Positions 9,365-52,006 of a stretch of DNA of 64,000 nt are shown piece by piece. The number at the start of each line of letters is the position of its first letter. Position 1 is the stretch's first letter. Source of the DNA: an uncultured Spirochaetota bacterium (GTDB lineage: Bacteria > Spirochaetota > Brevinematia > Brevinematales > JAOACQ01); NCBI GenBank assembly GCA_963768055.1, contig CAVYGN010000001.1, positions 1,344,001 through 1,408,000 of the forward strand, given 5' to 3'. Position numbers and translations under genes: made by a program. The notes under the pieces were generated by a model that saw only the letters and a list, made by a program, of their open reading frames with translations, was not told where the DNA came from and ran no database searches.

Positions 9365-10360
9365 TCAGTGTATAAGATTTTTAATTAAAACATAGAAAAC
9401 GGCGGATAATCCGGCTGAACATGGCATCGTTAATATCCAGGCCCATCCGATTTTCCCGGCAACCTGCCACCTCACAGCCGTAAAACGGTGAAGGGTGCCG
9501 ATACCCATTATCGACCCCGTAATTGTCTGCGTGGTGCTGACCGGGATCCCGAGAAGCGTCGAGGTAAAAAGGGATATAGCGGCGCCCACTTCTGCGCAAA
9601 AGCCGTCGACGGGGCGGAGCTTCACGACTTTCTGCCCCATTGTTTTAACGATCCTCCATCCTCCGAATAATGTGCCCAGGCTTATGGAAAGGTTGCAGAC
9701 AATGACTATCCACAATGGAATGTAGAATTTTCCGCCCAGCATGCCGGCGCTGAAAAGAAGCCCGGCAATTATTCCCATTGTTTTTTGCGCGTCATTGCCT
9801 CCATGCCCGATACTGTAAAGTGCCGCTGAAAACAGCTGTCCTCTGCGGAAAAAATTATCGACCTTCAGAGGATTCGTTTTTCTGAAAATCCAATAAACCA
9901 CTATACCTATTACTATTCCCATTACCATACCGAAAACAGGAGAGATGAATATGAATATTACTGTTTTTATTATTCCCCCCCATATAAGCGGGTGAAACGA
10001 ACCTGTTTTTATAACCGCCGAGCCGATCAAACTTCCAATCAGCGCATGAGAAGAACTTGACGGTATCCCCATATACCATGTTATGAGGTTCCAGATGATC
10101 GCTCCAAGAAGAGTGGCGAAGACAAGATTAGAGTCGACGATCGAAATGTCGATAATACCCTTGCCTATAGTGCCTGCTACGCTTACCCCGAAAAAAAGAA
10201 AAGCTATAAAATTAAAAACAGCCGCCCAGATGACGGCATACTTCGGGGATAAGACCCTTGTCGAAACAATTGTGGCTACCGAATTGGCGGAATCATGAAA
10301 CCCGTTAATGAAATCAAAGACAAGGGCCAGGCACACAAGAAACAAAACATAGAATTCCAT
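9365..10360 (-). CDS. pit: Inorganic phosphate transporter, PiT family
   Basis: NGFHDSANSVAT and HGGNDAQK signatures; multi-TM. Confidence 0.9.
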   Translation of the reverse strand: MEFYVLFLVCLALVFDFINGFHDSANSVATIVSTRVLSPKYAVIWAAVFNFIAFLFFGVSVAGTIGKGIIDISIVDSNLVFATLLGAIIWNLITWYMGIPSSSSHALIGSLIGSAVIKTGSFHPLIWGGIIKTVIFIFISPVFGMVMGIVIGIVVYWIFRKTNPLKVDNFFRRGQLFSAALYSIGHGGNDAQKTMGIIAGLLFSAGMLGGKFYIPLWIVIVCNLSISLGTLFGGWRIVKTMGQKVVKLRPVDGFCAEVGAAISLFTSTLLGIPVSTTQTITGSIMGIGTLHRFTAVRWQVAGKIGWAWILTMPCSAGLSAVFYVLIKNLIH

Positions 10361-10362
10361 TA

Positions 10363-10989
10363 CTATCCCTGCTTAACAAGTATAGTCTCGATAACATTCG
10401 CCACGTCTTCGCATATGTCGAGGACAGTTTCCATTCCTTCGAATATCTCTTTCGATTTAATAAAAAATATCGGTTCCGGATTGCTATCCAGCAGTTTGCC
10501 GACAAGAGCGTCTTTCAACTGGTCTCCAAGATTTTCAAGCTTGTTGACCTCGATGCAGCTATCCATAATCGGCCTCACATTTTTCGGCTTTCTCAGGCAG
10601 TTCAACCCCTTTTCTATTGCCGTTATCGCCTGTTCGATATATTCGGCAAAAAGCATGAGGCTCGGGTCGATTTCATTAATCTTGTAAAGATTTATCCTTT
10701 TTGATATGGAATATATCATATCGACAATATTATCAAGTTCCTGAGCAAGCTGGTGTATGTCTTCCCTGTCAAAAGGCGTTATAAAGGTACGGTTAAGAAG
10801 CTCTATGATATCATGGGTATTCACATCGCATTCGTGCTCAAAATCATGCATTTTGAGCACGCTGACGTCGTTAAAATTACTGTTCCCGATCTGCTCTTTG
10901 AAATAAATCGATGCGTTGTAAATTGCTTTTGCCTGCTTATCGAAAAGGTCGAAAAACTTTTCTTCCTTAGGAAAGAACCCGAAAGCCAT
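10363..10989 (-). CDS. DUF47 / PhoU-like phosphate transport regulator
   Basis: EHECD and TFITPFDREDI motifs; directly upstream of pit. Confidence 0.9.
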   Translation of the reverse strand: MAFGFFPKEEKFFDLFDKQAKAIYNASIYFKEQIGNSNFNDVSVLKMHDFEHECDVNTHDIIELLNRTFITPFDREDIHQLAQELDNIVDMIYSISKRINLYKINEIDPSLMLFAEYIEQAITAIEKGLNCLRKPKNVRPIMDSCIEVNKLENLGDQLKDALVGKLLDSNPEPIFFIKSKEIFEGMETVLDICEDVANVIETILVKQG

Positions 10990-11243: not shown

Positions 11244-12692
11244 ATGGTCGGAAAAATTACTCTGGGTGTTTTACTTGGCGCTTTAGTCTTATGTTATGCC
11301 GGTTGTGCCGGGAGCGGGGCAGGCAAACCTGAAAATTCAAAGAAGAACCTGAACCTTGCTTTGAATAAAAAAGCCGTAGCCTCCTCCTTCGAATCGGCGA
11401 ACCAGTACAGCGACAACAAAGACCTTGTCGCCGCTAATGCCGTGGATGGAGACCCTACAACCCGCTGGGGTTCGGATTGGAGACGTGATCATGATCCGAA
11501 CGTCGCCTGGATATACGTCGACCTCGGCGCCAGCATGCCCTTCCGGGAAGTTAAAATCAAATGGGAACCTTCAAAAGCCCTTGATTATAATATTGAAACT
11601 TCGGACGACGCCAAAGCCTGGACTGTCGTTAAAGCAGTGACCGGCAATGTTTCCGCGGATAACGATATAATCCTGGATAAGCCAGTTACAGCCCGTTATG
11701 TTAAGATAAATTGCATAAAGCGTTCAACGCAGTACGGGTATTCGATATATGAAATCGGGATTTACCTTGAAAAAAATAGCGGGGAAGCTTTCGGACAGGT
11801 TCAAATTTCTCAAAGTCAAGTAAAATATAAGAACGGGAAATTTTTAGGCAATGTCCTCGATATGGGTTCTACACCGCTTAAATTCGGCGCTTACTGGAAC
11901 CAGGTAACCCCGGAAAATAAGGGGAAATGGGGCGAGGTCGAAGCCAGCCCGAATAATTACCTCTGGGACTATGTTGACAACGCTTATAATTATGCAAAAT
12001 CGAGCGGCATTCTTTTCAAGATGCATAATCTTATCTGGGGGCAGCAGCAGCCTGCATGGATCTATTCACTTTCAGCCACCAATCAAACTCTTGCGATAAT
12101 AGCCTGGATCTCGAATGTCGGCGCGAGATATTCCAATATGGATTTCATCGATGTCGTTAACGAACCCATCAATACGCCTCCCGCATATGACAGTGCTATG
12201 GGCGGAAGCGGTTCGACAGGCTGGGACTGGGTCGTCTTTGCTTACAGGCAGGCAAGGAAGTATTGCAAGGGAAAACTGCTTATCAATGAGTACAACGTTG
12301 AAAACAACATCTCCGCATGCGCCAGATATACAAACATAATAACGATCCTTAAATCAAGTAATTTGATTGATGGAATAGGAATTGAGTGCCATAACTTCAG
12401 CCTCGGCGGCGATTTAACAAGCACATTATCCAATTGTCTGGGCATGATGGCGGCTACCGGCCTGCCTATCTATGTTTCGGAGATGGACCTGAGCGGCGCT
12501 ACAGACGATTTCCAGCTGTCGCTATACAAGACATATTTCCCAATTTTGTGGAATTACAAGGACATAAAGGGCATTACCCTGTGGGGATATGTTCAGGGCA
12601 AGATGTGGGAAAAAGACGAGTGGCTTATGTCTCCCGAAGGATCGGAACGCCCCGCTCTTACCTGGATTACGAATTACGCAATGACCGAATAG
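11244..12692 (+). CDS. GH10 endo-1,4-beta-xylanase lipoprotein with N-terminal CBM32 (F5/8 type C)
   Basis: Lipobox YAGC; NLALNKKAVASS..AVDGD..TRW; GH10 motifs VTPENKGKW, HNLIW, DVVNEP and IYVSEMD; RBS AAGGAG. Confidence 0.85.
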   Translation: MVGKITLGVLLGALVLCYAGCAGSGAGKPENSKKNLNLALNKKAVASSFESANQYSDNKDLVAANAVDGDPTTRWGSDWRRDHDPNVAWIYVDLGASMPFREVKIKWEPSKALDYNIETSDDAKAWTVVKAVTGNVSADNDIILDKPVTARYVKINCIKRSTQYGYSIYEIGIYLEKNSGEAFGQVQISQSQVKYKNGKFLGNVLDMGSTPLKFGAYWNQVTPENKGKWGEVEASPNNYLWDYVDNAYNYAKSSGILFKMHNLIWGQQQPAWIYSLSATNQTLAIIAWISNVGARYSNMDFIDVVNEPINTPPAYDSAMGGSGSTGWDWVVFAYRQARKYCKGKLLINEYNVENNISACARYTNIITILKSSNLIDGIGIECHNFSLGGDLTSTLSNCLGMMAATGLPIYVSEMDLSGATDDFQLSLYKTYFPILWNYKDIKGITLWGYVQGKMWEKDEWLMSPEGSERPALTWITNYAMTE

Positions 12693-27024: not shown

Positions 27025-27957
27025 ATGATGAAGTTAAACACATGGCTCAATAACGAATTGCCTGCTGTAGCCAATAAGCTCGAGAAATTGAGCATTCAAA
27101 ATGTAACGAACGAAAACACCATCGGGTTCGCGGGCAAGGAATCGGTATATAGAATTATCAGGGAACTTAGAGGGGCGCTGTTTCCCGGGGCGTACGACGA
27201 ACAGCTTTTCGATAAGACCAGGCTGAATATACTGGTCGGGAACCTCCTTAGAGAGGCTGCGATCGATCTTTCGTATATTATAGAAAAGACTTTCGTTTAC
27301 TACTGCGAGAAGGGGCTCTGTGACGATTGCGACTGCAAGGAAAAGGCCGGAGAGATTACCATAGAGCTTCTTGATAATCTTCCGGCCATAAGGAACGACC
27401 TCCAGAAAGACATAATCGCGGCCTATAACGGAGACCCTGCCGCAAAGCTGGAAGAGGAGATTATTTTAAGCTACCCTTCCATAGAAGCCTTAAGTATATA
27501 TCGCATCGCGCATTTTCTGTGCGTAAAAGACGTGCCGGTCATTCCCAGAATAATGTCGGAGTACGCACACCAGAAAACAGGGATCGATATTCATCCGGGT
27601 GCAAAGATCGGTTCCTCCTTTTTTGTAGATCATGGAACAGGCACCGTGATCGGCGAAACCTGCACAATCGGGAATAATGTCAAGCTTTACCAGGGTGTAA
27701 CCCTCGGCGCAAAAAGTTTTCCCCTTGATGAAAACGGGCATCCTGTAAAGAACCTCAAGAGGCATCCGGATATTGAAGACAACGTGGTAATCTACTCCGG
27801 GGCGACAATACTCGGCGGAGATACGAGGATCGGGCATGACTCTGTCATCGGCGGCAATGTCTGGCTGACACACTCGGTCCCGCCCTATACTACCGTTTAT
27901 AACGCCCAGCCGACCCCGCTTATCAAGCAGAAGAAACACTTTAAAGTGTCGGCTTAA
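27025..27957 (+). CDS. cysE: Serine O-acetyltransferase (long EpsC-type)
   Basis: AAYNGDPAA, TGIDIHPGA, FVDHGTGTVIGET, YQGVTLG and KRHP. Confidence 0.9.
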   Translation: MMKLNTWLNNELPAVANKLEKLSIQNVTNENTIGFAGKESVYRIIRELRGALFPGAYDEQLFDKTRLNILVGNLLREAAIDLSYIIEKTFVYYCEKGLCDDCDCKEKAGEITIELLDNLPAIRNDLQKDIIAAYNGDPAAKLEEEIILSYPSIEALSIYRIAHFLCVKDVPVIPRIMSEYAHQKTGIDIHPGAKIGSSFFVDHGTGTVIGETCTIGNNVKLYQGVTLGAKSFPLDENGHPVKNLKRHPDIEDNVVIYSGATILGGDTRIGHDSVIGGNVWLTHSVPPYTTVYNAQPTPLIKQKKHFKVSA

Positions 27958-27985
27958 TATCGCTTCAAAGGAAACAACCGGTCAA

Positions 27986-28040
27986 AATCACAGATTCCAC
28001 AGAAAACACTGATTAGTTTTTTTAAAATCAGTGAAATCTT
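27986..28040. repeat. Left member of an inverted-repeat pair (10-bp-periodic CACAGAT-type REP-like element)
   Basis: 27986-28013 matches the reverse complement of 39502-39529 at 23/28 positions. Confidence 0.65.
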
Positions 28041-28093
28041 GTTATAATTTTATTTTATTATTTATACCTATGCAGTTGATTCATGTAAATTTA

Positions 28094-28402
28094 TTAATTT
28101 AATACTTGTTCTATTAAATGTTCCTTTAGTATTTTAAAAAATTCATTATATTTAACTTGCCAATCTTCATCTGAAATTATTTTTCTATTTCCAAAATCAT
28201 CATATTCCTCATGCTCTGTAATCCAATAATCAACTATTTTCTCAATTTCAGGATTATTTAATTTCCCTTCTTTTTTTAAATTTTTTATTTGATCCATATT
28301 TAGAAATATTCCTAAATCATTGATTACACCCCATACTTCGTATTTCATTTCTTTGGAGTTAGTTTCAATTTTAATTACAACAATTAAAGTTATAATTGCA
28401 TG
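28094..28402 (-). pseudogene. Probable 3' half of the AT-rich gene split by the integrative element
   Basis: Frame stays open from the att core (28402) to the stop at 28094; internal ATG at 28348. Confidence 0.5.
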
Positions 28403-28538
28403 TTATTTCATTGTTTTGAATAACTCATTAAATGATAACAAATTATAAACTTAAGGTTCTGAATAGTAACATATCAGTAACATATTTATTAAAATAATGG
28501 GAAAAATGTAAGAATTTTAGTTTTCTGATTCGATAATA

Positions 28539-28796
28539 TTATTGTTTTTCTTCAAGCCGTTTTTCAAAGTCGTCAAAAAAAGTATGCAGTGAAATATTCA
28601 AAGCCTGGCAGATGTTTTTTAATTCAATGAAATCAATTCTTCTAATAAAAGTTTCATATTTACTTACATAAGGCTGATCTGCTTTTAAAAGTCTTGCAAA
28701 ATCACCTTGTGTAATTCCTTTTGATTCTCTATAATCTTTAAGCAGATTAATAAAGATTCTATACTCATTATTGTAAATTGATTTTTGGTACTTCAT
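28539..28796 (-). CDS. XRE-family HTH transcriptional regulator
   Basis: RESKGITQGDFA..DQPYVSKYE..RRID. Confidence 0.85.
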   Translation of the reverse strand: MKYQKSIYNNEYRIFINLLKDYRESKGITQGDFARLLKADQPYVSKYETFIRRIDFIELKNICQALNISLHTFFDDFEKRLEEKQ

Positions 28797-28908
28797 AAAA
28801 ATCCTGTAATTAATAAATGAATCGATAATTATATAAAAACTTTACTAAAATACGATATTCGTATAATATTATTTAAATTTATATTTTTATTGATTAGGGG
28901 GGCACTTT

Positions 28909-29295
28909 ATGAAAAAAGTAATGCTTTCAATCCTTTTTATCGCCTGTGTTCTTTTGGGTATTTTCGGCTTACTACTTTTCATTATTGGTATTACTCAGGG
29001 GGGCAATATTGCATCAATTTTAGTGGTATTTTTGCTTACAATCGGTTTCGTAATAGGGGCCATCTTTTCTTTCCGGGCCAGTGCTTTCTTTAAACCGAAA
29101 ACAGAAATAAAAGCACAAAGTGTTTCTGAAAATCAAGCAGATTCTTTGGAAAAACTTGAGGCTCAAAAAAAAGCTCAGGCAGAAGAAAAAGAAAAACTTG
29201 AAGCTGAAAAGGCGGCAAAAAAACAAGCCAGTAAAGAAAAATGGGCAACTATGAGGTCTACTTTTATAGAAATAATGATTTTGTATATGGCTTAA
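28909..29295 (+). CDS. Membrane protein (2 TM + charged coiled coil)
   Basis: Two hydrophobic helices, then an E/K/A-rich tail; RBS GGGGG. Confidence 0.6.
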   Translation: MKKVMLSILFIACVLLGIFGLLLFIIGITQGGNIASILVVFLLTIGFVIGAIFSFRASAFFKPKTEIKAQSVSENQADSLEKLEAQKKAQAEEKEKLEAEKAAKKQASKEKWATMRSTFIEIMILYMA

Positions 29296-29501
29296 GACAT
29301 GCAGAAATGATTTGTCCTCATTGTCAAACTAAGGGTCAAGTTTTTACAAAGTCAGTAAAACGGAAAAAGGGTGTTAGCGGTGGAAAAGCTGTGGGGGCAA
29401 TCTTAACAGGTGGGTTATCTATATTAGCAACTGGATTATCTCGTAAGGAAGGATTAACTCAAGCTCATTGCAAGAATTGTCAAGCGACTTGGGATTTTTA
29501 A
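29241..29501 (+). CDS. Zn-ribbon / glycine-rich membrane hypothetical protein (possibly the frameshifted C-terminus of the previous ORF)
   Basis: CPHC...HCKNC flanking GGKAVGAILTGGLSILATG. Confidence 0.55.
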   Translation: MGNYEVYFYRNNDFVYGLRHAEMICPHCQTKGQVFTKSVKRKKGVSGGKAVGAILTGGLSILATGLSRKEGLTQAHCKNCQATWDF

Positions 29502-29529
29502 ATATTAAAAGAAAGCCTTAATTAAGGCG

Positions 29530-30087
29530 GTGATTATGCAAAAATTATTTTTTCCTTTACTGATAATTATATCTTTTATTTTTAATTCATTCCTTAATGC
29601 TGTAGAATTGCCAAATGATCTAAAGGTTTCCCATACTGTAGATTCAACCGGGACAATTGAAATAGCCTTTTCCCCAAAGGGCGGTATTACTCAAATGATA
29701 GTAAAGGAATTAGAATCCGCGACAAATAGCATTGAAGTCCAGGCTTATACATTTACCAGCGCCCCTATTGCTAAAGCACTTATTGACGCTCAAAAACGCG
29801 GTGTTAATGTCCGCGTCATTTTGGATAAATCACAGGAAAGAGAAAAGTTTTCCCCGGTTACTCTGCTAACTAATGCCGGAATAAAGGTTCATATAGACAG
29901 GGATTTTTCAATAGCACATAGCAAGATTATGATTATCGATGATTTGAACTTTATAACAGGATCGTTTAACTTTTCAAAAGCCGCCGAATATTCTAATGCT
30001 GAAAATTGCCTGATTATCCGGGGAAATAAAAAGCTTGTTGATCTTTATAAAATAAATTGGAATTGGCGCTGGAATAATACGCGATAG
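29530..30087 (+). CDS. Secreted phospholipase D-family nuclease (Nuc-like, single HKD)
   Basis: Signal peptide; FSPKGG, QAYTFTS, HSKIMIID..ITGSFNFS and NAEN. Confidence 0.85.
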   Translation: MIMQKLFFPLLIIISFIFNSFLNAVELPNDLKVSHTVDSTGTIEIAFSPKGGITQMIVKELESATNSIEVQAYTFTSAPIAKALIDAQKRGVNVRVILDKSQEREKFSPVTLLTNAGIKVHIDRDFSIAHSKIMIIDDLNFITGSFNFSKAAEYSNAENCLIIRGNKKLVDLYKINWNWRWNNTR

Positions 30088-30638
30088 CGAAATTAATTTA
30101 AGAGAGAAAATAAACCTTATCTTAAAACGGAGGTAAATTATGAAAGCAAGTTTTGTTGTTATGCTTTTTAGAATTTTGTTTGCAATTGGCTTTATGGCTC
30201 TTTCTGTTAGTTGTGGATCATCTGGTAATATTACACAAGCAAAAACAAAATGGGAACGGGAAGGATTGAAAGGAAAAGTTAAAGAATATACTATTGTTTC
30301 TTATAATGTTGAACAAAAGTATGGAGAAGATGTTAAAAAGTTATCTGATAAATGGGTATCTAAATACGATGACAATGGAAATCTCCTTGAACAGTTAACG
30401 TATGATGAAAATGGGACTTTATCAGATAAATCTATATATCAATATAAGTATGACGTAAACAGTAATCAGATTGAACAAGACATGTATAATGCTACCAGGG
30501 TATTAATAGAGAAAGTAAATTATGATACCAAAGGAAATGCCATTAAAGAAATTTTTAATGATGGTAGCGGCTCTACATCTACTTATGATGATAATGGAAA
30601 TAAGATTGCAGAAGTTAGTTATGATACCAATGGAAATG

Positions 30639-32234
30639 CCCCGTGTGTTAGGATAGTTGTCGCCTAAAATATTAGGAGACAAAAAATGAATAGTCAAATT
30701 CGTTCAGAGGAATTCAGGAAATCTATCGTTCAAAAGATGTGTATGCCAGGAGGAAAAACAGTATCTGAACTGAGCCAGGAAATAGGAGTATGTGAACAAA
30801 CCCTTTACAACTGGAGGAAAATGATCCAGAATAATGTATCCAGAGGATTCCAGGATAGAAGCCCGAGAGGCTGGAAATTATCTGATAAATATCAGGCGGT
30901 AGTAGACGCAGCAAGCCAATCGGGAGAAGAGTTAGGACAGTGGTCGAGAAAAAATGGTCTCCAGTCGACTCATATCGAACTCTGGAAACAGGAGTGTTTA
31001 TCAGTGATATCTAATAACTCATACAGAGAAGAAAACAAGGGTTTGAAAGCAAAAATCATAGAGTTAGAAAAAGAAATTAACCGTAAGGATAAAACTATAG
31101 CCGAGGTTACTTCTCTGCTGGTGCTTAAAAAAAAACTGAACAAGCTGTTCGGGATCGAGGAAGATTAACTCCATTGGATATACGCATAGATATCTGTGCC
31201 TTGATTAATGAGGCTGTTACGACAGGGGCCAGCAGGGATAAGGCTTGTGAAGAATCTGGCTATGATATAAGGACCATACAGCGCTGGAATAAAAATCTTG
31301 AGGGAGACAGAAGAAAATTGAGAAATGTAATGCCTTCAAATGCCCTGTCGGCCGAAGAAAGGGAGGAGATCATCTCCTGCTGTTGCAGCGAGAGATTTAG
31401 AGATATGACGCCGAATGAAATAGTGCCCATGCTGGCAGAGGAAGGTCGGTATATAGCATCAGAATCATCTTTTTACCGCGTTTTAAAGGACAATGATTTG
31501 CTGCACCATAGATACGAAACGAAGCCGAAAACGGCAAGGAAAACGCCAAGAGAACTGGAAGCGACGGGTCCTAATCAGGTATGGAGTTGGGATATTACAT
31601 ATATATCCAGTCATATAAAAGGTAAGTATTTCTACCTCTATATGATCGAAGATGTCTGGAGCCGTAAGATAGTCGGCTGGAAAATGCACGAGGAGGAAAG
31701 CTCTGATCATGCCGCAAGAATGGTGGCAGAGATCGGAGAAACCATTGATTTGAAAGGCTTGTATTTACATTCTGATAATGGTTCTCCTATGAAAGGGGCT
31801 ACGATGTTAGCGACCTTGCAGAGGTTACAGGTTATGCCGTCGTTTTCAAGGCCGAGTGTAAGTAACGATAACCCTTACTCAGAATCATTGTTTAAAACAT
31901 TGAAATATAATGTGAAATACCCAGGCAATTTCGAGACAATGGAATCGGTAGAAATATGGATGCAAAATTTTGTAGACTGGTATAATAATAAACATCTTCA
32001 TTCAGGGATCGGATATGTCACACCAGCACAGAGACATGAAGGTAAAGATAAGGCGATACTCCTGAAGAGAGCGGAAACTTATGCGGCTGCAAAAAGCAGA
32101 CATCCTGAAAGATGGTCAGGAGAATCTAAAAAATGGGAACGGATAGAATCGGTATTTTTAAACCCGAGTAAGACTAACAAGGAATCGTTGGTTGCGGCGT
32201 AAAATAAAAGCGACAACTCCCTTGACAAAAACCG
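30639..32234 (+). mobile_element. IS3-family insertion sequence, copy 1 (1596 bp)
   Basis: Imperfect TIRs sharing AGTTGTCGC; 5-bp target duplication AAATG; orfA/orfB. Confidence 0.92.
30686..32202 (+). CDS. IS3 transposase OrfA/OrfB (probable -1 frameshift at A9, 31127-31135)
   Basis: OrfA HTH; OrfB DDE motifs WSWDITY, HSDNG and SESLFKTLK; TTA AAA AAA AAA slippery run; the -1 frame is open into OrfB. Confidence 0.9.
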
Positions 32235-32871
32235 AAATGTAGCAAATAGTAACACATATAAATATGACGATAAAGGAACAGAAATCGAAAACTCCGCCTA
32301 TTCTGCAAATGGCGAATTGTCTTATAAAATAAAATATGAACCCACTTATGATGACAAGGAAAATGTGATTGAGCGTGACGATTATAATGCAGATGGCAGT
32401 TTAGCGAATAAAACAAAATTTAAATACGATGATAATGGCAATGCAATTGAGGCAGCTACTTATGAAGCCGATAAGATGAAATATTTTACGAAATATAATT
32501 ACACTTATTATAAATGAGCTTTTTTGAGATATAAAACTCTTGAAATGGTTAATATACGGCCTTAAAATAAAATGGGTTAATGATTAAATATAGACAAGGC
32601 ATTAAAACCGGCCTGTAATTGACCCGCCTGGAGCTGTCCAGCGGGATCGCGCATGCTTAAAAAATTCTCCCTTTTATAGACTCCAAAAACTCCGTTAATA
32701 CCCCGAATGTTTTATGTTACTTTTAGCAAGGTTTCTGGAGTTTTGCAAGAGGTTTAGAAAGGTTTTACTATGGTTTTCCACAGTTTATTTGAGCTTTAAT
32801 GAGCTTTTTCAAAGTTTATTAATGCTTTCCCCCTGCTTTGTGTTTGCTTTTCTCTTTTTTGTTTATAAGAT

Positions 32872-33330
32872 TTATGAGCCTTCCGGCGTTTTCCCGGCCA
32901 TTATTCTAAAATTATTAATACCCGTTAATATTTCCCTTGTTCTTTTTTCAGCTTCCCCATCCCCTTTTATTTTTTCCTCAAAAAAGTCCCAAAACTCTTT
33001 TTCTAAGTCTTCTTTTGACATATCAGAATATTTATTTTTATTTTCAATGGTTATACTTTCCGGGGCGCGTCCTAACAGCCTATCAGTAATAACAGAAATT
33101 TGACCTTTTTGCATTACATCAATTAATGACTTTTCCAGTAGTAAAGTTTCCGGGTCAATTTTCATTGATTCCGCTTGTTTAATTGTCAGGCCAATTACTT
33201 TATTAAAGGCTTCGATTATTTCAGATGTTTCAAATTCTTTAACAGCCCTGAGTGTCTTTGACAGACGGGGCCGTCCGGCTTTATTTATATCCTGGGGGCG
33301 CTTATCAAGTCCATTTGTCGGTTTTCTCAT
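32872..33330 (-). CDS. TerS-like / DUF5681-like phage protein, paralogue 2
   Basis: INKAGRP near the N-terminus and DRLLGRAPE; aligns with the upstream paralogue. Confidence 0.5.
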   Translation of the reverse strand: MRKPTNGLDKRPQDINKAGRPRLSKTLRAVKEFETSEIIEAFNKVIGLTIKQAESMKIDPETLLLEKSLIDVMQKGQISVITDRLLGRAPESITIENKNKYSDMSKEDLEKEFWDFFEEKIKGDGEAEKRTREILTGINNFRIMAGKTPEGS

Positions 33331-33378
33331 AGTTTTTTACCTCTTAAATCTTTGTTTTTTCTTTGTAAAAACAATGAA

Positions 33379-33771
33379 TTAAAATCTTTTGACTGTTATT
33401 TTCTGGAGACATTCATAATAGATTTTCTTTATTTCTTCTTCACTCATTCCTGTAGTGTCAATTATTTCAACATCGTCAGCAGTATTTAAATTGACCGTTT
33501 CCGGGCATTTGCCTAAAATCCTATCAATGACCGGCTCAAATCTTCCGATTAACATATTTTTTATTATTGCATATTCAACTAAGGTACAGGAAGAATTTTC
33601 GATCCATTCTTTAGCCTCGAAAACTTTCATTGATACTATTTTTGAAAATGTCAGTAATATTTCTTGTGTTGAATATTCCTTTATTGCCTTAATTTCTTTT
33701 GAGAGCGGTGGTCTGCCTTTTCTATTAATGTTTTCTGGCCTGTTTTGAAATTGTCCATTTTCTTTACTCAT
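33379..33771 (-). CDS. TerS-like / DUF5681-like phage protein, paralogue 1
   Basis: GQF..RPENINRKGRP and DRILGKCPE. Confidence 0.5.
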   Translation of the reverse strand: MSKENGQFQNRPENINRKGRPPLSKEIKAIKEYSTQEILLTFSKIVSMKVFEAKEWIENSSCTLVEYAIIKNMLIGRFEPVIDRILGKCPETVNLNTADDVEIIDTTGMSEEEIKKIYYECLQKITVKRF

Positions 33772-33820
33772 ATTAAATTACCTTAATTTTATATTCAAAA
33801 AGTCCTGTTTTTGTCCAGTT

Positions 33821-34729
33821 CTAAAGGTTGTTGCAAACTGATTGATTAACTTTATCATTAAGCTCATGAATGATTTCCGATGCTTCTGTAAAATTATCAT
33901 TATTCGATAGTGATAATATTTTCTGCCTCAGTTTGTAAATATATTGTCTTGAATATTGTTTTCTATAGGGTTCAATCATTTTATTAACTTCCTGAAAACC
34001 TCCTATTGATTGAATACCAATCAATGCCAATTGATTAATAAAATTTTTTATATCTTCCATAGCTACCTCCGGGTTAATTATAATCCTTTTAATTTTTGGA
34101 ATCCGATTATAATAATCTTTCCAAAGATTAATTGCTCTGTTAAAAAAAGATTCTGAATAAAGATTTTCGGCTTTTACTTCGGGCATTTGCATAGCTTTTT
34201 TTACTCTCCCGTGTAACTGTAACTCATATCTTAAAAGATTATGACCTTGATATTTTTCTGGAATACCTTGATTTTTGTCTATCATTTCAGCGGTTTTATC
34301 ATATAGCTTTATGCCTTTATTTTTTTGAGTATAATACTTTGATTGATTCATTACAGTTGTCGTTTTAAAATAACTCATATTATCACTTAAAAAATATAGA
34401 TACTTGCTTACAGGATAATCCATAATAAATGTTTTTGCTGTTTCAAAGCCATAAACATGAAATTTCTTAACTTCGATTGATAGTTCATCACTTATTTTTT
34501 CGATAGCTCTTTGTGTGTCCTGCCGGGTAAATGGTTCAATATTATTGCCATGCAGATGTTTTGCTAAACTTCCGTTAATAGAAATTTTATAAGCATCTTG
34601 CCATACTTTCAAATTTCCGATATTACCTTTAAAAAATGGAAATCCGGCTTCATTAAATGTTTGTGTTAGTTCTGATAATCTATTTTGAACCGGTTCATTA
34701 GTGTACAATCTCATAAAGACTGAATCATA
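33821..34729 (-). CDS. Phage/plasmid replication protein, gene II/X-like (rolling-circle type)
   Basis: MYDSV start after GAGG; SINGSLAKHLHGNN, IKLYDKTAE and NLLRYELQ. Confidence 0.7.
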   Translation of the reverse strand, partial: YDSVFMRLYTNEPVQNRLSELTQTFNEAGFPFFKGNIGNLKVWQDAYKISINGSLAKHLHGNNIEPFTRQDTQRAIEKISDELSIEVKKFHVYGFETAKTFIMDYPVSKYLYFLSDNMSYFKTTTVMNQSKYYTQKNKGIKLYDKTAEMIDKNQGIPEKYQGHNLLRYELQLHGRVKKAMQMPEVKAENLYSESFFNRAINLWKDYYNRIPKIKRIIINPEVAMEDIKNFINQLALIGIQSIGGFQEVNKMIEPYRKQYSRQYIYKLRQKILSLSNNDNFTEASEIIHELNDKVNQSVCNNL

Positions 34730-34778
34730 CATTTTAACCTCTAAAATGTAACCAAAAACAGTTACAAGATACACTTTA

Positions 34779-35222
34779 TTAATTAAGCATTTTAATCTTT
34801 ATAGCCGTCCGTTTTAAATCCCGAATTTCATTTTCAAATTCACCGTCAATAAAAAGATTAAACAAGGCTATAACATTTTTCTTTTTCCCTTTGGCAATGA
34901 AAAGCTCAATTTCGTTTTCTTGAATAATCATAAGCAGTGCGTCCATTGTATCCCGGCAATCGCCATAACCAAAATCAGGCTTATTTAAATTAGGGATGTA
35001 AATGCTTGAAATATTATTTCCGGCCTGAGTTATTGTTTTATCTGATTTTCTGAGCTTTTCTTTTACACAATAAGAATCGTTTAAGTAGATAACAATATCA
35101 GGCGATCTCTTTAGGGGTTTATGTAAAGGTTCATATTCATTACAATATTCGATTAAATCAAGCCTTGTTTTGCTTTCAATTCCCGGTAGTTTTTTAAAGT
35201 GGTAATATGAATCTAAAATCAT
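34779..35222 (-). CDS. Hypothetical protein of the integrative element
   Basis: 147-aa ORF overlapping the xis stop (ATGA); FGYGD..TMDALL motif. Confidence 0.6.
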   Translation of the reverse strand: MILDSYYHFKKLPGIESKTRLDLIEYCNEYEPLHKPLKRSPDIVIYLNDSYCVKEKLRKSDKTITQAGNNISSIYIPNLNKPDFGYGDCRDTMDALLMIIQENEIELFIAKGKKKNVIALFNLFIDGEFENEIRDLKRTAIKIKMLN

Positions 35223-35509
35223 AAAACAGCCTCATTTTTGGTAATGTGGTCAATTGCTTTCTCGTTAATATTTTGGTTTGATTCTATCCGATTCCTTAAT
35301 AGCCAGGTGTCTAAGTCCTGTTTAGTAAAATAAATCATTTTACCGTTTGGTTTGTAGTGGGGTATATCACCTTTAAATGTAAGTTTATACATATAGCTTT
35401 TACTTAATCCGGTGTATTGACAGGCTTCGAGGAAAGTTAAAGGTTTCTCTTTTTGGTCTTTAAGAATATTTTCGATCCGGGTAAGTTGGTCTTGAATTTG
35501 TTTTTCCAT
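35219..35509 (-). CDS. Excisionase / HTH_17 DNA-binding protein
   Basis: LTFLEACQYTGLSKSYMYKLT..IPHYKPNGKMIYF...LDTWL. Confidence 0.85.
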   Translation of the reverse strand: MEKQIQDQLTRIENILKDQKEKPLTFLEACQYTGLSKSYMYKLTFKGDIPHYKPNGKMIYFTKQDLDTWLLRNRIESNQNINEKAIDHITKNEAVL

Positions 35510-36348
35510 TTTACATTTCTCCAATGAACAAATTTAAATAGATAATAAAGTCTATTCATTGGATATATTGTAAAAAATAAATTAGGTTTTGTAATACGTT
35601 ATGAAGTCGTTAATTAGTCGTTATTTTCAACTGAAAATTCATCAACTTCTTGAATCATATCATTTATGGGTTTAAAAGAAGGGTCTTTTCGTATTTCTTT
35701 TGTCGTGAAAGTTTTACCTGTAGAATCGTTTCTGTCAACTGTAAGCTTTGATCGTATTCTTGACATTATCGAAGTAAGATCATTTATTTCATATTCTTTG
35801 TTTTTATCTCTATCATAAAAAACTTTTACAATAAAAGAGCATATATGTTTTAAATCACTTTCTTCTATTTTCCCCATTTCTTTTAATCTAATAAACATAA
35901 ACAAAAGTTGATCTATTTTTCCATACCAATTGAGCTTTCTTATTTTTTCCGGAATATCAGTTTCTTGATCTATATTATTGTATGGATTAACACTTTTTTG
36001 ACTGTTCAATAAAGCATTAATTCTTTCTATTTCAATTTCAGTTCTGTTAATCGAGTTCTGAAAATACGTTAATTCCAATTTAATGCTTTCGAGAGTTTCT
36101 TGGGGCACATCCCAAAGTAATAGTAATTCGTTGTCTGTTTTAGCATGTTTAAGCATAGGTAAAATTTCTTTGAAAAATATCAATTTATCTTCATTTTTAG
36201 TGAATAATTTATCAGACATTTTTTTTAGTTTATCAAAATCATTTGTTAATCGGATATGTTCTAATTTTTCGACTTGATCTCCAAAATATTCTAACATCGT
36301 GCCTTGATATTCAAAAGAGTTTAAATTTCCTAATGGTCTTTTGGCATT

Positions 36349-37944
36349 CCCCGTGTGTTAGGATAGTTGTCGCCTAAAATATTAGGAGACAAAAAATGAA
36401 TAGTCAAATTCGTTCAGAGGAATTCAGGAAATCTATCGTTCAAAAGATGTGTATGCCAGGAGGAAAAACAGTATCTGAACTGAGCCAGGAAATAGGAGTA
36501 TGTGAACAAACCCTTTACAACTGGAGGAAAATGATCCAGAATAATGTATCCAGAGGATTCCAGGATAGAAGCCCGAGAGGCTGGAAATTATCTGATAAAT
36601 ATCAGGCGGTAGTAGACGCAGCAAGCCAATCGGGAGAAGAGTTAGGACAGTGGTTGAGAAAAAATGGTCTCCAGTCGACTCATATCGAACTCTGGAAACA
36701 GGAGTGTTTATCAGTGATATCTAATAACTCATACAGAGAAGAAAACAAGGGTTTGAAAGCAAAAATCATAGAGTTAGAAAAAGAAATTAACCGTAAGGAT
36801 AAAACTATAGCCGAGGTTACTTCTCTGCTGGTGCTTAAAAAAAAACTGAACAAGCTGTTCGGGATCGAGGAAGATTAACTCCATTGGATATACGCATAGA
36901 TATCTGTGCCTTGATTAATGAGGCTGTTACGACAGGGGCCAGCAGGGATAAGGCTTGTGAAGAATCTGGCTATGATATAAGGACCATACAGCGCTGGAAT
37001 AAAAATCTTGAGGGAGACAGAAGAAAATTGAGAAATGTAATGCCTTCAAATGCCCTGTCGGCCGAAGAAAGGGAGGAGATCATCTCCTGCTGTTGCAGCG
37101 AGAGATTTAGAGATATGACGCCGAATGAAATAGTGCCCATGCTGGCAGAGGAAGGTCGGTATATAGCATCAGAATCATCTTTTTACCGCGTTTTAAAGGA
37201 CAATGATTTGCTGCACCATAGATACGAAACGAAGCCGAAAACGGCAAGGAAAACGCCAAGAGAACTGGAAGCGACGGGTCCTAATCAGGTATGGAGTTGG
37301 GATATTACATATATATCCAGTCATATAAAAGGTAAGTATTTCTACCTCTATATGATCGAAGATGTCTGGAGCCGTAAGATAGTCGGCTGGAAAATGCACG
37401 AGGAGGAAAGCTCTGATCATGCCGCAAGAATGGTGGCAGAGATCGGAGAAACCATTGATTTGAAAGGCTTGTATTTACATTCTGATAATGGTTCTCCTAT
37501 GAAAGGGGCTACGATGTTAGCGACCTTGCAGAGGTTACAGGTTATGCCGTCGTTTTCAAGGCCGAGTGTAAGTAACGATAACCCTTACTCAGAATCATTG
37601 TTTAAAACATTGAAATATAATGTGAAATACCCAGGCAATTTCGAGACAATGGAATCGGTAGAAATATGGATGCAAAATTTTGTAGACTGGTATAATAATA
37701 AACATCTTCATTCAGGGATCGGATATGTCACACCAGCACAGAGACATGAAGGTAAAGATAAGGCGATACTCCTGAAGAGAGCGGAAACTTATGCGGCTGC
37801 AAAAAGCAGACATCCTGAAAGATGGTCAGGAGAATCTAAAAAATGGGAACGGATAGAATCGGTATTTTTAAACCCGAGTAAGACTAACAAGGAATCGTTG
37901 GTTGCGGCGTAAAATAAAAGCGACAACTCCCTTGACAAAAACCG
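36349..37944 (+). mobile_element. IS3-family insertion sequence, copy 2 (1596 bp)
   Basis: Same ends as copy 1; 4-bp target duplication CATT; OrfA differs by S/L (30945 C vs 36655 T). Confidence 0.92.
36396..37912 (+). CDS. IS3 transposase OrfA/OrfB
   Basis: OrfB identical to copy 1 in the ORF track. Confidence 0.9.
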
Positions 37945-38117
37945 CATTGGGTATCATTTATGAAACCTCTTTTTGATCTTTGCTTTTTTATGTTTTTTCT
38001 TTTCCCTTTTTTGTTTTGGTCATTCTGGGCGGCTTTATCAATGTCCGATTAATAAATCACTATAAAGCGATATTCAAAAGCTCATAGCAGGGCAAAACGA
38101 CATTAAATTAACCTTTT

Positions 38118-39167
38118 TTAAGCCTGTTTTGTATCAAGTTCAATTTCTGGAATCAGGTTGACTGCCTCTCTCAATTTTTCATTAACGATCTTTGCATAAA
38201 TTTGAGTAGTTGAAAGGTCTCTATGCCCCAATAGTTTTGATACAGTATAAAGGTCAACTCCATTACTAAGGGCAACGGTAGCAAAACTATGACGGGCTGT
38301 GTGAAATGTTACCGCTTTTTCTATTCCGGCATTTTTAACCCATCTCTTTAATTGCTGTCTGATTGTTTCGGACTGTTTTAATTCAAAAATCTTGTCATCT
38401 TTATTTATGTGGACTATATTAGAATCCTTATTTTCCAGGATTTTCAAAGCCATATCTGAAAGGGGTAAATATTCAATTCGTTTAGTTTTTTTCTGCCTGA
38501 ATTGAATCTTATCACCCTGAATATCGGAGTAGGTTAAATTTCTTACATCGCTGATTCTAAGTCCGGTATAGCAGGAAAACAGGAAAGCCTTTTTTGTTTC
38601 CTGATCGATACAGTTTGCTTTTGCCATTTGTTGAATTTCATCAAGGGTTAAGTAACTCTTTTCAACTTCCGTCATTTTTATCCTGCCGATATATTTACAA
38701 GGATTTTCTGCAATGAGCTTTTCTTTGACCGCTTTATTCAGGGCATTGTTAATATAAATAAAATAGTTTCCGGCAGTGTTCTTCGATACCCTTGTCAATA
38801 AATAATTTTGAAACGATATAAGCCAGTTTTCATTAATGGCATTTATCTTGATACCGTTTGAAAAGGCTTTCAGATGATTTAAGACATTTTTCCAATGACA
38901 GCTTTTGCCCGTTATTTGTTGAAAGTAAGTAATAAAATTTGTCTTACTCTTAAAAGCCGGGATCATGCCATATTGATTATTATTAAGTTCAATTTCTCTT
39001 TTGGCTCTGATCGAATCGGCAAGCCTCATATTTTCTTTATTGACTTCTCTGTCTTTGTCCAGGTATAAATTTAGGAACTCATATTTTCTTTGGCCGTTAT
39101 AGTAAATATCAAGGTAAAGAGAAATTCTGTTATCATTGAGCTTTTTTTCTCGGAGTTTAACACTCAT
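38118..39167 (-). CDS. Tyrosine site-specific integrase (arm-binding + SAM-like + catalytic; Bacteroidota NBU/Tn4555-like N-terminus)
   Basis: SLYLDIYYNGQRKYEFL; TGLRISD, HTARHSFAT and LLGHRDLSTTQIYA. Confidence 0.92.
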   Translation of the reverse strand: MSVKLREKKLNDNRISLYLDIYYNGQRKYEFLNLYLDKDREVNKENMRLADSIRAKREIELNNNQYGMIPAFKSKTNFITYFQQITGKSCHWKNVLNHLKAFSNGIKINAINENWLISFQNYLLTRVSKNTAGNYFIYINNALNKAVKEKLIAENPCKYIGRIKMTEVEKSYLTLDEIQQMAKANCIDQETKKAFLFSCYTGLRISDVRNLTYSDIQGDKIQFRQKKTKRIEYLPLSDMALKILENKDSNIVHINKDDKIFELKQSETIRQQLKRWVKNAGIEKAVTFHTARHSFATVALSNGVDLYTVSKLLGHRDLSTTQIYAKIVNEKLREAVNLIPEIELDTKQA

Positions 39168-39282
39168 TTTATTACCTCGTTTTTGTTACTTTGTTTCTCG
39201 AATCTTGTAGTAACATTATAGTAACAAAATATGAGAAAATCAAGGAAAATATCAGAAAGAATAATATTGATTATTTCATTGT

Positions 39283-39400
39283 AATTATATGATATATATT
39301 GCTTTTGATTTCTTATTTTTTCTTGTGTTTTATGGCATGAAAAAATTGCCACAATGAATGCTAAGATTCCTGTAATAGCGGATATCATTTCCCAATTCAT
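39283..39400 (-). pseudogene. Probable 5' half of the gene split by the integrative element
   Basis: RBS GGAGG, then MNWEMISAITGILAFIVAIFSC...; the frame runs into the att core at 39271-39282. Confidence 0.5.
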
Positions 39401-39484
39401 AAATTACCTCCAATGTTGTATATAAATATATAATAAGTTCCTTTAATATTTAAAATTAAAAAATAAATCGTTTTTAATATTTTA

Positions 39485-39529
39485 TGGATTTCACAGAATA
39501 TATCAGTGTAATCTGTGTCATCTGTGGTT
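39485..39529. repeat. Right member of the inverted-repeat pair (CACAGAT-type)
   Basis: ATCAGTGTAATCTGTGTCATCTGTGGTT, inverted relative to 27986-28013. Confidence 0.65.
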
Positions 39530-39536
39530 ACAACAC

Positions 39537-39995
39537 CTACATTACAAGGTCTATGATAAGCCCTTTAATGCCGTTAATAAGTTTAAGGTAGGAAAGCCTG
39601 TTCTTCTCGTTTGAAAGGATCATCCGGGCCAGGTCCGAAAGCTTTTCATCGATAGATTCAACCGTTTTATAGAGATTCTGTTTTGTAAAACCTTTTCTTG
39701 AAACAGTTTCACGAACTTCAAGGTTTTCCATTAGAGCCGAGATAAAAGATTTAATATGCTTTTTATAAACATTAAAATTTTCAGGCGTGGGATTTCGAGA
39801 CAAATTCTCACCGAATTCCGAAATGAGTTCGGCCATTTTCCTGAAATCGTCGAAACCGGTATAATCGAATTCAGCCTCGATTTCTTCGCCTGATGAGAGT
39901 TTAAGGCTGTCGGAAAACCCCTCATCCTGTTTGACAACTGAAGAGTCTTTTTTCAGGGAATGCCTGGCCGGAGTATGCCCCGATTCTATCCTCAC
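39537..39995 (-). CDS. YaaR / DUF327 family protein
   Basis: I...GENL..NPT..N...YK..IKSF; IDEKL..L; IKGLIIDL. Confidence 0.75.
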   Translation of the reverse strand: MRIESGHTPARHSLKKDSSVVKQDEGFSDSLKLSSGEEIEAEFDYTGFDDFRKMAELISEFGENLSRNPTPENFNVYKKHIKSFISALMENLEVRETVSRKGFTKQNLYKTVESIDEKLSDLARMILSNEKNRLSYLKLINGIKGLIIDLVM

Positions 39996-50989: not shown

Positions 50990-52006
50990 TCACTGAACTA
51001 TCAGGCGGGCTTTTAAATTTCCGTTTTTATATAAAAGCTGAAGAATCTTTACAATATCGTTCCCGGTAAATCCGGTCTGATTTAAACTGTCAACAAGGTC
51101 CTGCACTGTAGCCGTACCTTTTAACAGTTTGACGCTTCCTTCGGTTTTCTGTTGTGAAATATTTCCGTTTTGACTGGAACCTATCTCCAGTTTCATACCT
51201 CCGTAAGAAACAGCCGAATCAGAAAGTATGACATTGCCTCCGGAGATAAGTATCCCGTTTTTAGAGTCGATCAGGACGCTTGGTTCTTCCTCGATATCTG
51301 CGCTAAGTTTGAAAATATCATCGATAAAATTGTTTACTTCAAGGTTCTGCGGTACTTTAACTTTTATCCTGTTAAAAGATATCTCCCTGACGGCATCAGG
51401 ATATTTCTGTTTGATCGCATCGACAGATTTATTAACGGCATTATAGCCGAGCGATTCCTGAACAATAAAGGTAATAACATTATTAGTATCAAGAATAATA
51501 TTATCAATTCGCTTTTGCATAATTGCGCCCAGGGGAACGTATCCCATGATACCCTTAGAGAACCTGTCGGTCATAACACTGCCTTCAGCAATAGCATAGA
51601 TATCATTATCTCCGCCCATAAGAGGCGTAATAATAAGTTCTCCTCCTTCAAGGGATTTGGCGTCGTAAATCGATGAAACTTTTACATCAATCCTCGATCC
51701 CTGTTGTGAAAAAGGAGTGATTGTCGCGCTAACAAGGACGACCGCCGAGTTTTTTGGTTTGATTTTGTCAGAATTTATTTTAAAACCAAAATTGTTGGCA
51801 ATTCTCGATATGATCTCTTTTGTCTGTGTCCCGCTGTCGCTGTCGCCGGTACCTTTTAAACCGACAACGACGCCATAGCCCAGTAAAGGGTTTTCCTGAA
51901 ATCCTTCAATTCTCAATATATTTCTCAGATTAACAGTCGATGCGCGCAAAGTACCTGCAATGCTGAACAGGGAAACAACCATTATAAAAGAATAAAATAT
52001 TTTCAC
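50990..52006 (-). CDS. flgI: Flagellar P-ring protein FlgI
   Basis: N.LLGYGVVVGLKGTGD, DVKVSSIYDAKSLEGG and GNLKARLIV. Confidence 0.85.
   Translation of the reverse strand: MKIFYSFIMVVSLFSIAGTLRASTVNLRNILRIEGFQENPLLGYGVVVGLKGTGDSDSGTQTKEIISRIANNFGFKINSDKIKPKNSAVVLVSATITPFSQQGSRIDVKVSSIYDAKSLEGGELIITPLMGGDNDIYAIAEGSVMTDRFSKGIMGYVPLGAIMQKRIDNIILDTNNVITFIVQESLGYNAVNKSVDAIKQKYPDAVREISFNRIKVKVPQNLEVNNFIDDIFKLSADIEEEPSVLIDSKNGILISGGNVILSDSAVSYGGMKLEIGSSQNGNISQQKTEGSVKLLKGTATVQDLVDSLNQTGFTGNDIVKILQLLYKNGNLKARLIVQ

Follow-up and report, generated by a model that had tools for sequence, protein, structure and literature searches.

A candidate satellite of tailed phages with a Phage_CRI-family initiator in a low-GC bacterial island

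The window analysed here (the whole stretch of 64,000 nucleotides, positions 1,344,001 to 1,408,000 of contig CAVYGN010000001.1) contains a low-GC interval (27958-39536, between convergent chromosomal genes) whose right-hand part encodes a tyrosine integrase (Int), an excisionase-type protein (Xis), a rolling-circle initiator (Rep) and two small open reading frames (ORFs A and B) distantly related to DUF5681 proteins. Judged by gene content and gene order, this core is one copy of a family of small integrative elements found in Bacteroidota and Spirochaetota. We tentatively read it as a minimal satellite of tailed phages that would replicate by rolling circle and would resemble two described kinds of satellite, the phage-inducible chromosomal minimalist islands (PICMI) and the virion encapsidated integrative mobile elements (VEIMEs). 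The main argument for this reading is that two unrelated families of small proteins, both linked to packaging, share the same slot behind Rep in homologous elements.

The integrative core and its relatives

The genes of the core, and the non-coding stretch that follows them, are given below in window coordinates (aa, amino acids; HTH, helix-turn-helix).

39164-39400, minus strand: small hydrophobic ORF of 78 aa, preceded by a GGAGG ribosome-binding site and translationally coupled to int, whose start it overlaps by ATGA
38118-39167, minus strand: tyrosine integrase (int), 349 aa (Pfam Phage_integrase 6.4e-30, Phage_int_SAM_5 2.1e-15, Arm-DNA-bind_5 1.9e-10)
35614-36297, minus strand: ORF of 227 aa in the variable post-integrase position, function unassigned
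35219-35524, minus strand: excisionase-type HTH_17 protein (Xis), 101 aa (PF12728 1.3e-11; TIGR01764 excisionase 3.3e-11)
34779-35222, minus strand: orf147, conserved core protein of 147 aa, with blastp homologues in relatives
33821-34732, minus strand: rolling-circle initiator (Rep) of 303 aa, counted from the ATG at 34732 (PF05144, Phage_CRI)
33379-33771, minus strand: small ORF A, 130 aa, with a ribosome-binding site, a distant DUF5681 relative
32872-33330, minus strand: small ORF B, 152 aa, with a good ribosome-binding site, a paralogue of ORF A
32518-32871, no strand: non-coding stretch past small ORF B, with a GC-rich hairpin at about 32620-32645 and no Rfam match

The initial annotation, made from the letters of the sequence, had listed an order that included integrase, Xis, Rep and two small ORFs, and these are indeed present on the minus strand; its estimate of ~7.7 kb without the two insertion sequence (IS) copies likewise holds for the interval between 28403 and 39282 (10880 - 3192 = 7688 bp). 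It had also remarked on missing gene classes, in agreement with our scans, in which no capsid, tail, large terminase (TerL), relaxase, coupling-protein or conjugation family was detected among the island ORFs (20 ORFs in Pfam; 14 each in PHROGs, NCBIfam and PADLOC). Neither a primase nor a helicase domain was found in these ORFs, the replication gene being the PF05144 nickase.

Relatives of Rep were sought in one genome per species (the window's own genome is not among these representatives), and ORFs were called at each locus so that the loci could be compared by blastp and by scanning 128 neighbouring ORFs with Pfam. Twelve related loci were recovered, eleven in metagenome-assembled genomes (MAGs) of Bacteroidota and one, the closest (L001), in a Spirochaetota MAG, with Rep identities of 28-52% (tblastn best segment). 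They share a recurring order: int, a variable ORF that begins a few bases past int, an HTH_17 gene, an orf147 homologue, Rep and usually one small ORF, after which host genes resume. Homologues of Xis (40-79% identical) are present in all twelve loci and those of orf147 (blastp) in nine, always between xis and Rep. An integrase is present in nine (contig ends truncate L004 and L010, and L001 lacks one within 10 kb), all of them Bacteroidota MAGs.

The integrases of those nine loci are 28-41% identical to the one in the window, which also matches the integrase family phrog_1 (2.5e-55). This identity, together with the Arm-DNA-bind_5, Phage_int_SAM_5 and Phage_integrase architecture, bears out the 'Bacteroidota-style integrase' of the initial annotation, and its Xis is borne out by the HTH_17 (PF12728) and TIGR01764 matches. 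The label 'RteC-like' for the 227-aa ORF had to be given up: no Pfam family was matched at E<=10 and nothing was found in PHROGs, NCBIfam or PADLOC, the nearest similarities being weak blastp matches to the post-integrase ORFs of L009 (25% over 151 aa, E 4e-6) and L010 (E 5e-4). No family was matched by orf147 (Pfam to E<=10, PHROGs, NCBIfam; the best Atlas score, 0.84, is uninformative), nor by the 78-aa ORF (Pfam, PHROGs, NCBIfam). The latter recalls the integrase-overlapping gene described as required for PICMI excision (bioRxiv 10.1101/2023.07.18.549517).

Three of the loci have clear direct repeats at their flanks, which put the length of the unit at 4.4 kb (L006), 4.5 kb (L003) and 4.1 kb (L012); in most related loci the GC content of the element lies below that of its flanks. 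L006 has a 60-nt repeat and a shorter one (6739-6762 and 11359-11382), which we take to be a tRNA 3' end, and in three further loci the element lies immediately downstream of mnmE (L008:5418-6800, L009:2682-4070, L011:5465-6853); members of the family therefore integrate at different, specific sites. Because the relatives stop just after the post-Rep ORF, the core in the window probably spans about 32.5-39.5 kb, from past the 78-aa ORF to past small ORF B (~5 kb without the IS copy inside it), and the non-coding stretch at 32518-32871 is the expected core end and a candidate att (attachment), origin or pac (packaging) site.

A distant int-X-HTH-Rep variant was seen in a Parabacteroides distasonis record (L021; NZ_OY725790.1 52327-60472) that is typed as a 277 kb non-mobilizable plasmid. 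Eight small hypothetical ORFs, several of them membrane-like, follow Rep there, with neither an orf147 homologue nor a match resembling a small terminase (TerS) at this locus. No description of an int-xis-PF05144 family was found in a limited search of open-access literature; the VEIME and SatelliteFinder datasets could contain it.

The Rep of the window matches PF05144 well above the gathering score (5.7e-10, 39.7 bits against 21.7), and the family is present in all 15 Rep homologues found. Translation probably begins at the ATG at 34732, which follows a GAGG (an alternative GTG at 34774 would give 317 aa). Across an alignment of 15 sequences (A2), D3, Y144-x-K146 and R168-x-E170 are invariant and E149 is nearly so; within a six-sequence subset (A3), R70-x-D72 and E149 are invariant. 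The conserved residues correspond to superfamily motifs N', I, III and IV, and the Rep_trans motifs (N' Asp, RxD, YxKxxE and (L/W)xRxE) are described as occurring in Phage_CRI proteins too (PMC5714925). As these catalytic motifs are intact and conserved, Rep is very probably an active tyrosine nickase, and the earlier designation as a 'gene II/X-type Rep' is upheld. The MOB_T-like relaxase that the initial annotation had set against its own proposal was not what the profiles returned: PF02486 (MOB_T, Rep_trans) is matched neither by Rep at E<=0.1 nor by the 12 related Reps at E<=1e-4. The Rep_trans superfamily is described as yielding replication initiators and relaxases alike, with dual Rep/relaxase activity documented (PMC5714925), so that sequence alone cannot decide between these roles for Rep. 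A PDB sequence search with the A2 profile gave nothing relevant.

In four relatives from Chitinophagales/Bacteroidia, Rep is bracketed by a direct repeat of 37-48 nt (81-93% identical), one copy ending at the Rep start and the other lying just ahead of the post-Rep ORF. A shared promoter/operator could account for it, as could a duplication of the origin. No such repeat brackets Rep in the window or in L001.

L007: Rep-bracketing repeats at 3485-3525 and 4462-4502
L008: Rep-bracketing repeats at 9852-9898 and 10837-10883
L009: Rep-bracketing repeats at 7202-7249 and 8183-8230
L012: Rep-bracketing repeats at 9858-9894 and 10842-10878

Two protein families in the slot behind Rep

ORFs A and B share 29% identity over 123 aa (E 7e-23). 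Apart from the protein of the window itself, a word-indexed search returned a single relative (63% identity). A three-sequence profile (A1), run against 1.84 billion representatives, gave 185 matches at E<=1e-3, of which nine reach <=1e-10 and three <=1e-30; these are all small proteins, and they align over most of their length (about 90-120 residues). The enlarged alignment (A4) holds 83 sequences, namely ORFs A and B and 81 matches from P0002-P0100 (P0026, P0046 and P0088, short or partial, were excluded), and leaves out P0101-P0166 and 35 further A1 matches. PF18932 (DUF5681) is matched by 44 of these 83 sequences. The A4 profile in turn found 409 proteins, with PF18932 present in 112 of the 120 matches listed, and among those listed every name given by the source reads 'hypothetical protein'. 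The closest relatives (P0018-P0024) have no PF18932 match at E<=1.

The AlphaFold model of ORF A is all-helical, with a predicted local distance difference test score (pLDDT) of 87.6. Its top four matches in BFVD are DUF5681 proteins of uncultured tailed phages (E 1.9e-3 to 4.4e-3), and viral clusters, including one of DUF5681, make up most of its Atlas neighbours. Since many matches of the A1 and A4 profiles carry PF18932 and the top BFVD matches are DUF5681 proteins, we assign ORFs A and B to this family as distant members, by profile transitivity, and regard ORF A as a candidate small-terminase-like DNA-recognition protein. A PDB sequence-profile search with A4 gave nothing relevant.

In tailed phages, DUF5681-type genes occupy the small-terminase position, an observation made on relatives and not on the window ORFs. 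P0079, a bona fide PF18932 member (E 2.6e-10), has three tblastn matches in 50,697 phage records (Bacteroides phage Versailles, ctMEh928 and Acetobacter phiAX1), and in all three the match falls on a small ORF that overlaps the start of the gene ahead of portal; that gene is annotated as TerL in two of them (Versailles and ctMEh928). The A4 profile scores the three phage proteins at 46, 37 and 32 bits. PAK_P3-like Pseudomonas phages, reached through P0086 (42 records, E 0.07, N-terminal 38 residues only), have a gene labelled DUF5681 in RefSeq that opens the TerL-bearing strand, with TerL about 1.6-3 kb downstream. ORF A, P0036, P0054, P0169, P0270 and P0053 had no tblastn match in the phage collection.

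A further route to TerS, through gp88 of Salmonella phage STGO-35-1 (L014:2437-2856), was dropped. This protein has been published as 'DUF5681' and has homologues in 302 phage records; by PF18932 and hhalign it is unrelated to true DUF5681, as none of the four proteins compared (gp88 and homologues) matches PF18932 at E<=1 in current Pfam and the hhalign probability against A4 is 1%. In each of the four phages inspected the gp88-type gene lies directly ahead of TerL, and one of the four annotations calls it 'terminase small subunit'.

Six relatives (L001, L007, L008, L009, L010 and L012) have another protein in the post-Rep slot, conserved and 136-147 aa long, which is predicted to fold into an N-terminal HTH, a 45-residue helix and a second helix (pLDDT 70). 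All six members match the 'terminase small subunit' family phrog_2538 (E 8e-5 to 0.03), and in four of them it is the best match, L010 matching phrog_309 best (4e-5) and L001 phrog_4102 (7e-4). This HTH family has no kinship with the DUF5681 proteins (hhalign probability 5%), and a PDB sequence search with its profile (A5) gave nothing relevant. The post-Rep ORF of L011 (10958-11269, 103 aa) falls in neither family; its FSSTNQP-type N-terminal motif bears only a weak resemblance to proteins that precede TerL in Salmonella and Bacteroides phages (blastp E 0.002-0.003, 12 residues).

Satellite, mobilizable element or replicon

In the course of events that we propose from the gene families, Int and the HTH_17-type Xis would excise the element as a circle, Rep would nick its origin and drive rolling-circle amplification, and the gene or genes behind Rep would recognise the element's DNA and recruit the large terminase of a tailed helper phage, so that multimers of the ~5 kb unit would be packaged by headful into helper capsids. 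The rolling-circle Rep would thus take the place of the primase in a satellite akin to PICMI and VEIMEs. Minimal satellites that replicate in a rolling-circle-like way and are packaged as concatemers have been documented in both PICMI (bioRxiv 10.1101/2023.07.18.549517) and VEIMEs (PMC9618062).

Several results weigh against a satellite, chiefly the weakness of each link to TerS and the existence of elements that have no such gene. ORFs A and B match nothing in Pfam (to E<=10), PHROGs or NCBIfam, terminase and DUF5681 families included, and profiles built from window-type sequences only score the three phage proteins at just 3-15 bits. Foldseek found no match to the ORF A model in the PDB at E<=1e-3 (best E 2.2) and no solved small terminase. 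The PHROG families matched by DUF5681 relatives carry no function, and no experimental work on DUF5681 was found in the open-access literature searched, in which the name occurs in one paper. As for the HTH family, its terminase matches are weak and mostly confined to the HTH, and its PDB fold search was non-significant (2ao9 at E 0.15 and the Sf6 small terminase at E 0.5-0.75, among TetR-like regulators). A search of 647 ORFs with A4 (hmmsearch) revealed no DUF5681-like ORF in the 12 relatives, matching only the two ORFs of the window, and at least five relatives lack a TerS-like gene behind Rep (L002, L003, L006, the P. distasonis locus and, doubtfully, L011). In the 50,697 phage records, tblastn found no match to Rep. 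Neither a helper phage nor a pac site was identified, nor an origin in the element, and no att site stands out from the alignments of the island edges and of the inner end.

The initial annotation fares unevenly against this record. Its 'two TerS-like genes' stand as far as kinship with DUF5681 through profiles goes, and not as to a direct DUF5681 or terminase match or a TerS fold; the structural comparison it had called for returned DUF5681 proteins from BFVD and no small terminase from the PDB. The int-xis-Rep-TerS synteny that it had suggested looking for in other genomes is not conserved, as the DUF5681 pair is absent from all 12 related Rep loci. Of its 'candidate new satellite type' with a rolling-circle Rep the parts are present; there is a precedent for a Cri-type Rep in a satellite, described below.

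Phage-inducible chromosomal islands (PICIs), among them the Staphylococcus aureus pathogenicity islands (SaPIs), carry int, a regulator, xis, a replication gene and terS, and the satellite's small terminase redirects helper packaging. They measure 10-15 kb, replicate by primase-helicase and often remodel the capsid. The present element shares with them the integrase and an excision/regulatory module (Int and HTH_17, with an XRE regulator at the far end of the island), and differs in a core of 4-5 kb, a rolling-circle nickase as initiator, the lack of a primase-helicase and a TerS that is only a candidate.

Closer in size are PICMI, described from Vibrionaceae as elements of 6.1 kb and six genes that are packaged as 8-mer concatemers in full-size helper capsids (bioRxiv 10.1101/2023.07.18.549517). 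The likeness extends to a length of ~6 kb, an integrase with a linked or overlapping small gene, a small HTH regulator, a single replication gene, unassigned small ORFs and the absence of capsid genes, and PICMI are reported to replicate in rolling-circle fashion. Unlike the present element, PICMI are described with a core of int, alpA and primase at the fis end, and their authors report that they found no terS (same source). Here the replication gene is a PF05144 nickase with no primase, the HTH_17 regulator was not detected as AlpA, the hosts are Bacteroidota and Spirochaetota, and the element is known from its genes alone; the island is flanked by genes for a hexapeptide acyltransferase and a DUF327 protein, and not inserted at the end of fis. 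VEIMEs are described as small, integrase-bearing, capsid-gene-free elements of marine bacteria (Flavobacteria among the hosts) that occur as concatemers in virions, some modules having terminase-small-subunit homologues, excisionases and plasmid-type initiators (PMC9618062). They were defined from particles, whereas the present family is known from genomes, and the comparison was made with their description.

A more specific form of the satellite reading, which we regard as possible and rather doubtful, would make these loci an undescribed family of 4-5 kb tailed-phage satellites in Bacteroidota and Spirochaetota, combining concatemers made by Rep with an exchangeable small-terminase cassette behind it, and would make DUF5681 a small-terminase family. 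The cassette would be of the HTH type in Chitinophagales and one spirochaete and of a duplicated DUF5681 type here, a swap would retarget the helper phage, and the nickase of Phage_CRI/Rep_trans type would supply the concatemers that headful packaging requires.

Among the rivals, an integrative mobilizable element appears unlikely. Rep would then be a relaxase nicking an origin of transfer (oriT), a co-resident conjugative element would supply the coupling protein and pore, and the small post-Rep proteins would serve as relaxosome accessory DNA-binding factors. Rep_trans nickases are described as doubling as relaxases, as in Tn916 and ICEBs1, and Phage_CRI shares their superfamily and catalytic motif set (PMC5714925); a module of int-xis and a single nickase, with no structural genes, fits this view as well, as does an integrase type common in Bacteroidota mobile elements. 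The family match of Rep is nevertheless to PF05144 and not to PF02486, and the element belongs to a different phylum from the MOB_T systems. No coupling protein, FtsK/TcpA-like protein or Mob family was found in the element or in the 128 ORFs around its 12 relatives, no conjugation genes were seen among the 34 flanking ORFs scanned, and the relatives of the small ORFs are overwhelmingly viral and adjoin TerL.

We attach a similarly low probability to an integrative rolling-circle replicon that has no dedicated transfer, in which the DUF5681 pair and the left arm of the island would be phage-derived cargo, or to an IS-riddled remnant of such a replicon. Such a replicon would accommodate the occurrence of the DUF5681 pair in none of the 12 relatives, the relatives that have no recognisable TerS-like gene, the closest relative (L001) with no integrase within 10 kb, and the two IS insertions, one of which parts int from the core. 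It accords poorly with the preservation of gene order in 12 loci of two phyla at 27-52% Rep identity, which implies effective horizontal spread, and with a post-Rep slot that is occupied in most complete relatives.

Quite improbable, finally, is a satellite or derivative of filamentous (inovirus-type) phages like TLCphi and RS1 of Vibrio cholerae, with a helper coating and extruding single-stranded circles: PF05144 is the gene II/Cri family, rolling-circle replication of TLCphi is described as depending on Cri, and TLCphi and RS1 are likewise small integrative satellites with a Cri/gene II-family Rep as sole replication function and no morphogenesis genes (PMC6744903), but these integrate by XerCD at dif and have inovirus helpers (same source), whereas the element here has its own tyrosine integrase and Xis and tailed-phage-type small ORFs that would be left without a role, its Rep is unmatched in the phage records, and inoviruses are of uncertain presence in Spirochaetes and unmentioned for Bacteroidetes in the main text of PMC6813254. 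TLCphi (PMC6744903) is nonetheless a precedent for phage satellites that have a Cri-family Rep. Readings other than the tailed-phage satellite and these three rivals take the remaining probability.

Setting of the island, insertion sequences and left arm

On its left the island adjoins a cysE-like hexapeptide acyltransferase gene (plus strand, end at 27957) and on its right a DUF327 gene (minus strand, end at 39537), followed by a PTPS (6-pyruvoyl-tetrahydropterin synthase) family gene and dnaE. Its GC content (0.24-0.36, against 0.41-0.44 in the flanks) marks it as foreign; the right-hand core has a value of 0.307, the left arm one of 0.301 and the IS copies one of 0.415, as compared with 0.420 in the remaining window. 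The flanks are made up of ordinary chromosomal genes, with no phage, prophage or conjugation families among the matches of the 34 flanking ORFs scanned. They include genes for an LIC_10190 family membrane protein (60380-62140), an LvrA-like histidine kinase (8103-9311) and the flagellar P-ring protein FlgI (50990-52006). The first two names, both from NCBIfam, are, we presume, Leptospira-derived and a weak hint to the host lineage. The 'probable spirochete' of the initial annotation rests on them and on the nearest relative, L001, being a Spirochaetota MAG, and is weaker than it was put.

The initial annotation had bounded the element by the 12-mer TTATTTCATTGT (28403-28414 and 39271-39282), taken as an att repeat. 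As a boundary this repeat finds no support: one-mismatch copies also occur at 3196 and 33371, the right copy falls within the int-coupled ORF at 39164-39400, the left copy would put the low-GC ORF at 28094-28348 outside the element, and in local alignment of the island edges the observed score was reached by 32 of 200 shuffles in direct and 22 of 200 in inverted orientation. When an alternative inner left end was aligned with the int-proximal end, 196 of 300 shuffles matched the observed repeat score. No tRNA or other Rfam family was found in 27900-39700 at E<=1 (the sole tRNA gene of the window lies 2.1 kb left of the island), and promoter and terminator scans were level with shuffles. A motif, CACAGATT...ACACTGAT, stands inverted at the two island edges (27989-28013 on the plus strand and 39502-39517 on the minus strand), with no third copy in the window, and the two sites may once have formed a bidirectional terminator for the convergent host genes, which the insertion then divided. 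Its count is no test, because the pattern was derived from those two sites. Their alignment is not above shuffles.

Two copies of an IS3-family element lie inside the island.

30639-32234, plus strand: IS copy 1, 1596 bp, with HTH_Tnp_1 and rve/rve_3 (Pfam) and the target duplication AAATG
36349-37944, plus strand: IS copy 2, 1596 bp, with orfA of 160 aa, orfB of 342 aa and the target duplication CATT

The Pfam domains were scanned on copy 1, and copy 2 was assigned by near-identity, the two differing at one internal position (the offset between them is 5710). Their separate target duplications argue for independent insertions and not for a composite transposon. Copy 1 interrupts a YD-repeat lipoprotein gene, whose frame continues open beyond it, and copy 2 sits between int and the 227-aa ORF, cutting int off from the rest of the core. 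Both insertions are recent, and this copy of the element may be crippled by the one that parts int from the core. Both IS copies are host-like in GC content, within a foreign island of 11.5 kb.

The remainder of the island forms the left arm, with the following features (Pfam, PHROGs and NCBIfam scans).

28094-30638, resuming at 32240-32517 past IS copy 1, no strand: left arm
28094-28348, minus strand: ORF of 84 aa
28539-28796, minus strand: XRE HTH_3 regulator
between the XRE regulator and the Zn-ribbon ORF, no strand given: membrane protein of 128 aa
29241-29501, no strand given: Zn-ribbon protein of 86 aa, matching seven PHROG families, none with a function
29530-30087, no strand given: Nuc-like nuclease of the phospholipase D (PLD) family (PLDc_2 1.6e-25; phrog_12711 7e-46)
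30140-30638, plus strand: YD-repeat lipoprotein, split by IS copy 1, the frame open beyond it

The nuclease has an N-terminal signal-like segment, and phrog_12711 is a phage protein family with no assigned function. PADLOC detected no complete defence system in the 14 island ORFs, its matches being limited to XRE-type HTH models for the regulator, a generic likeness between the PLD nuclease and DrmC, and two marginal single-protein matches. The genes of the second arm described by the initial annotation, an XRE regulator with envelope and nuclease cargo, are present; they may not belong to the element, and this arm has no counterpart in the relatives with defined ends. It resembles the core in GC content, and may be either cargo of the element or a separate neighbouring islet.

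If the satellite reading is true, the range of phage satellites would come to include Bacteroidota and Spirochaetota, in the form of a very small and easily recognised module (int, xis, a PF05144 Rep and a small-terminase cassette), rolling-circle initiators would be tied directly to concatemer packaging, and DUF5681, a widespread phage family, would gain a testable role as a small terminase. Should it fail, a conserved family of integrative rolling-circle elements would still be defined, and the DUF5681 pair and the XRE/nuclease arm would be shown to be accessories of a single copy.

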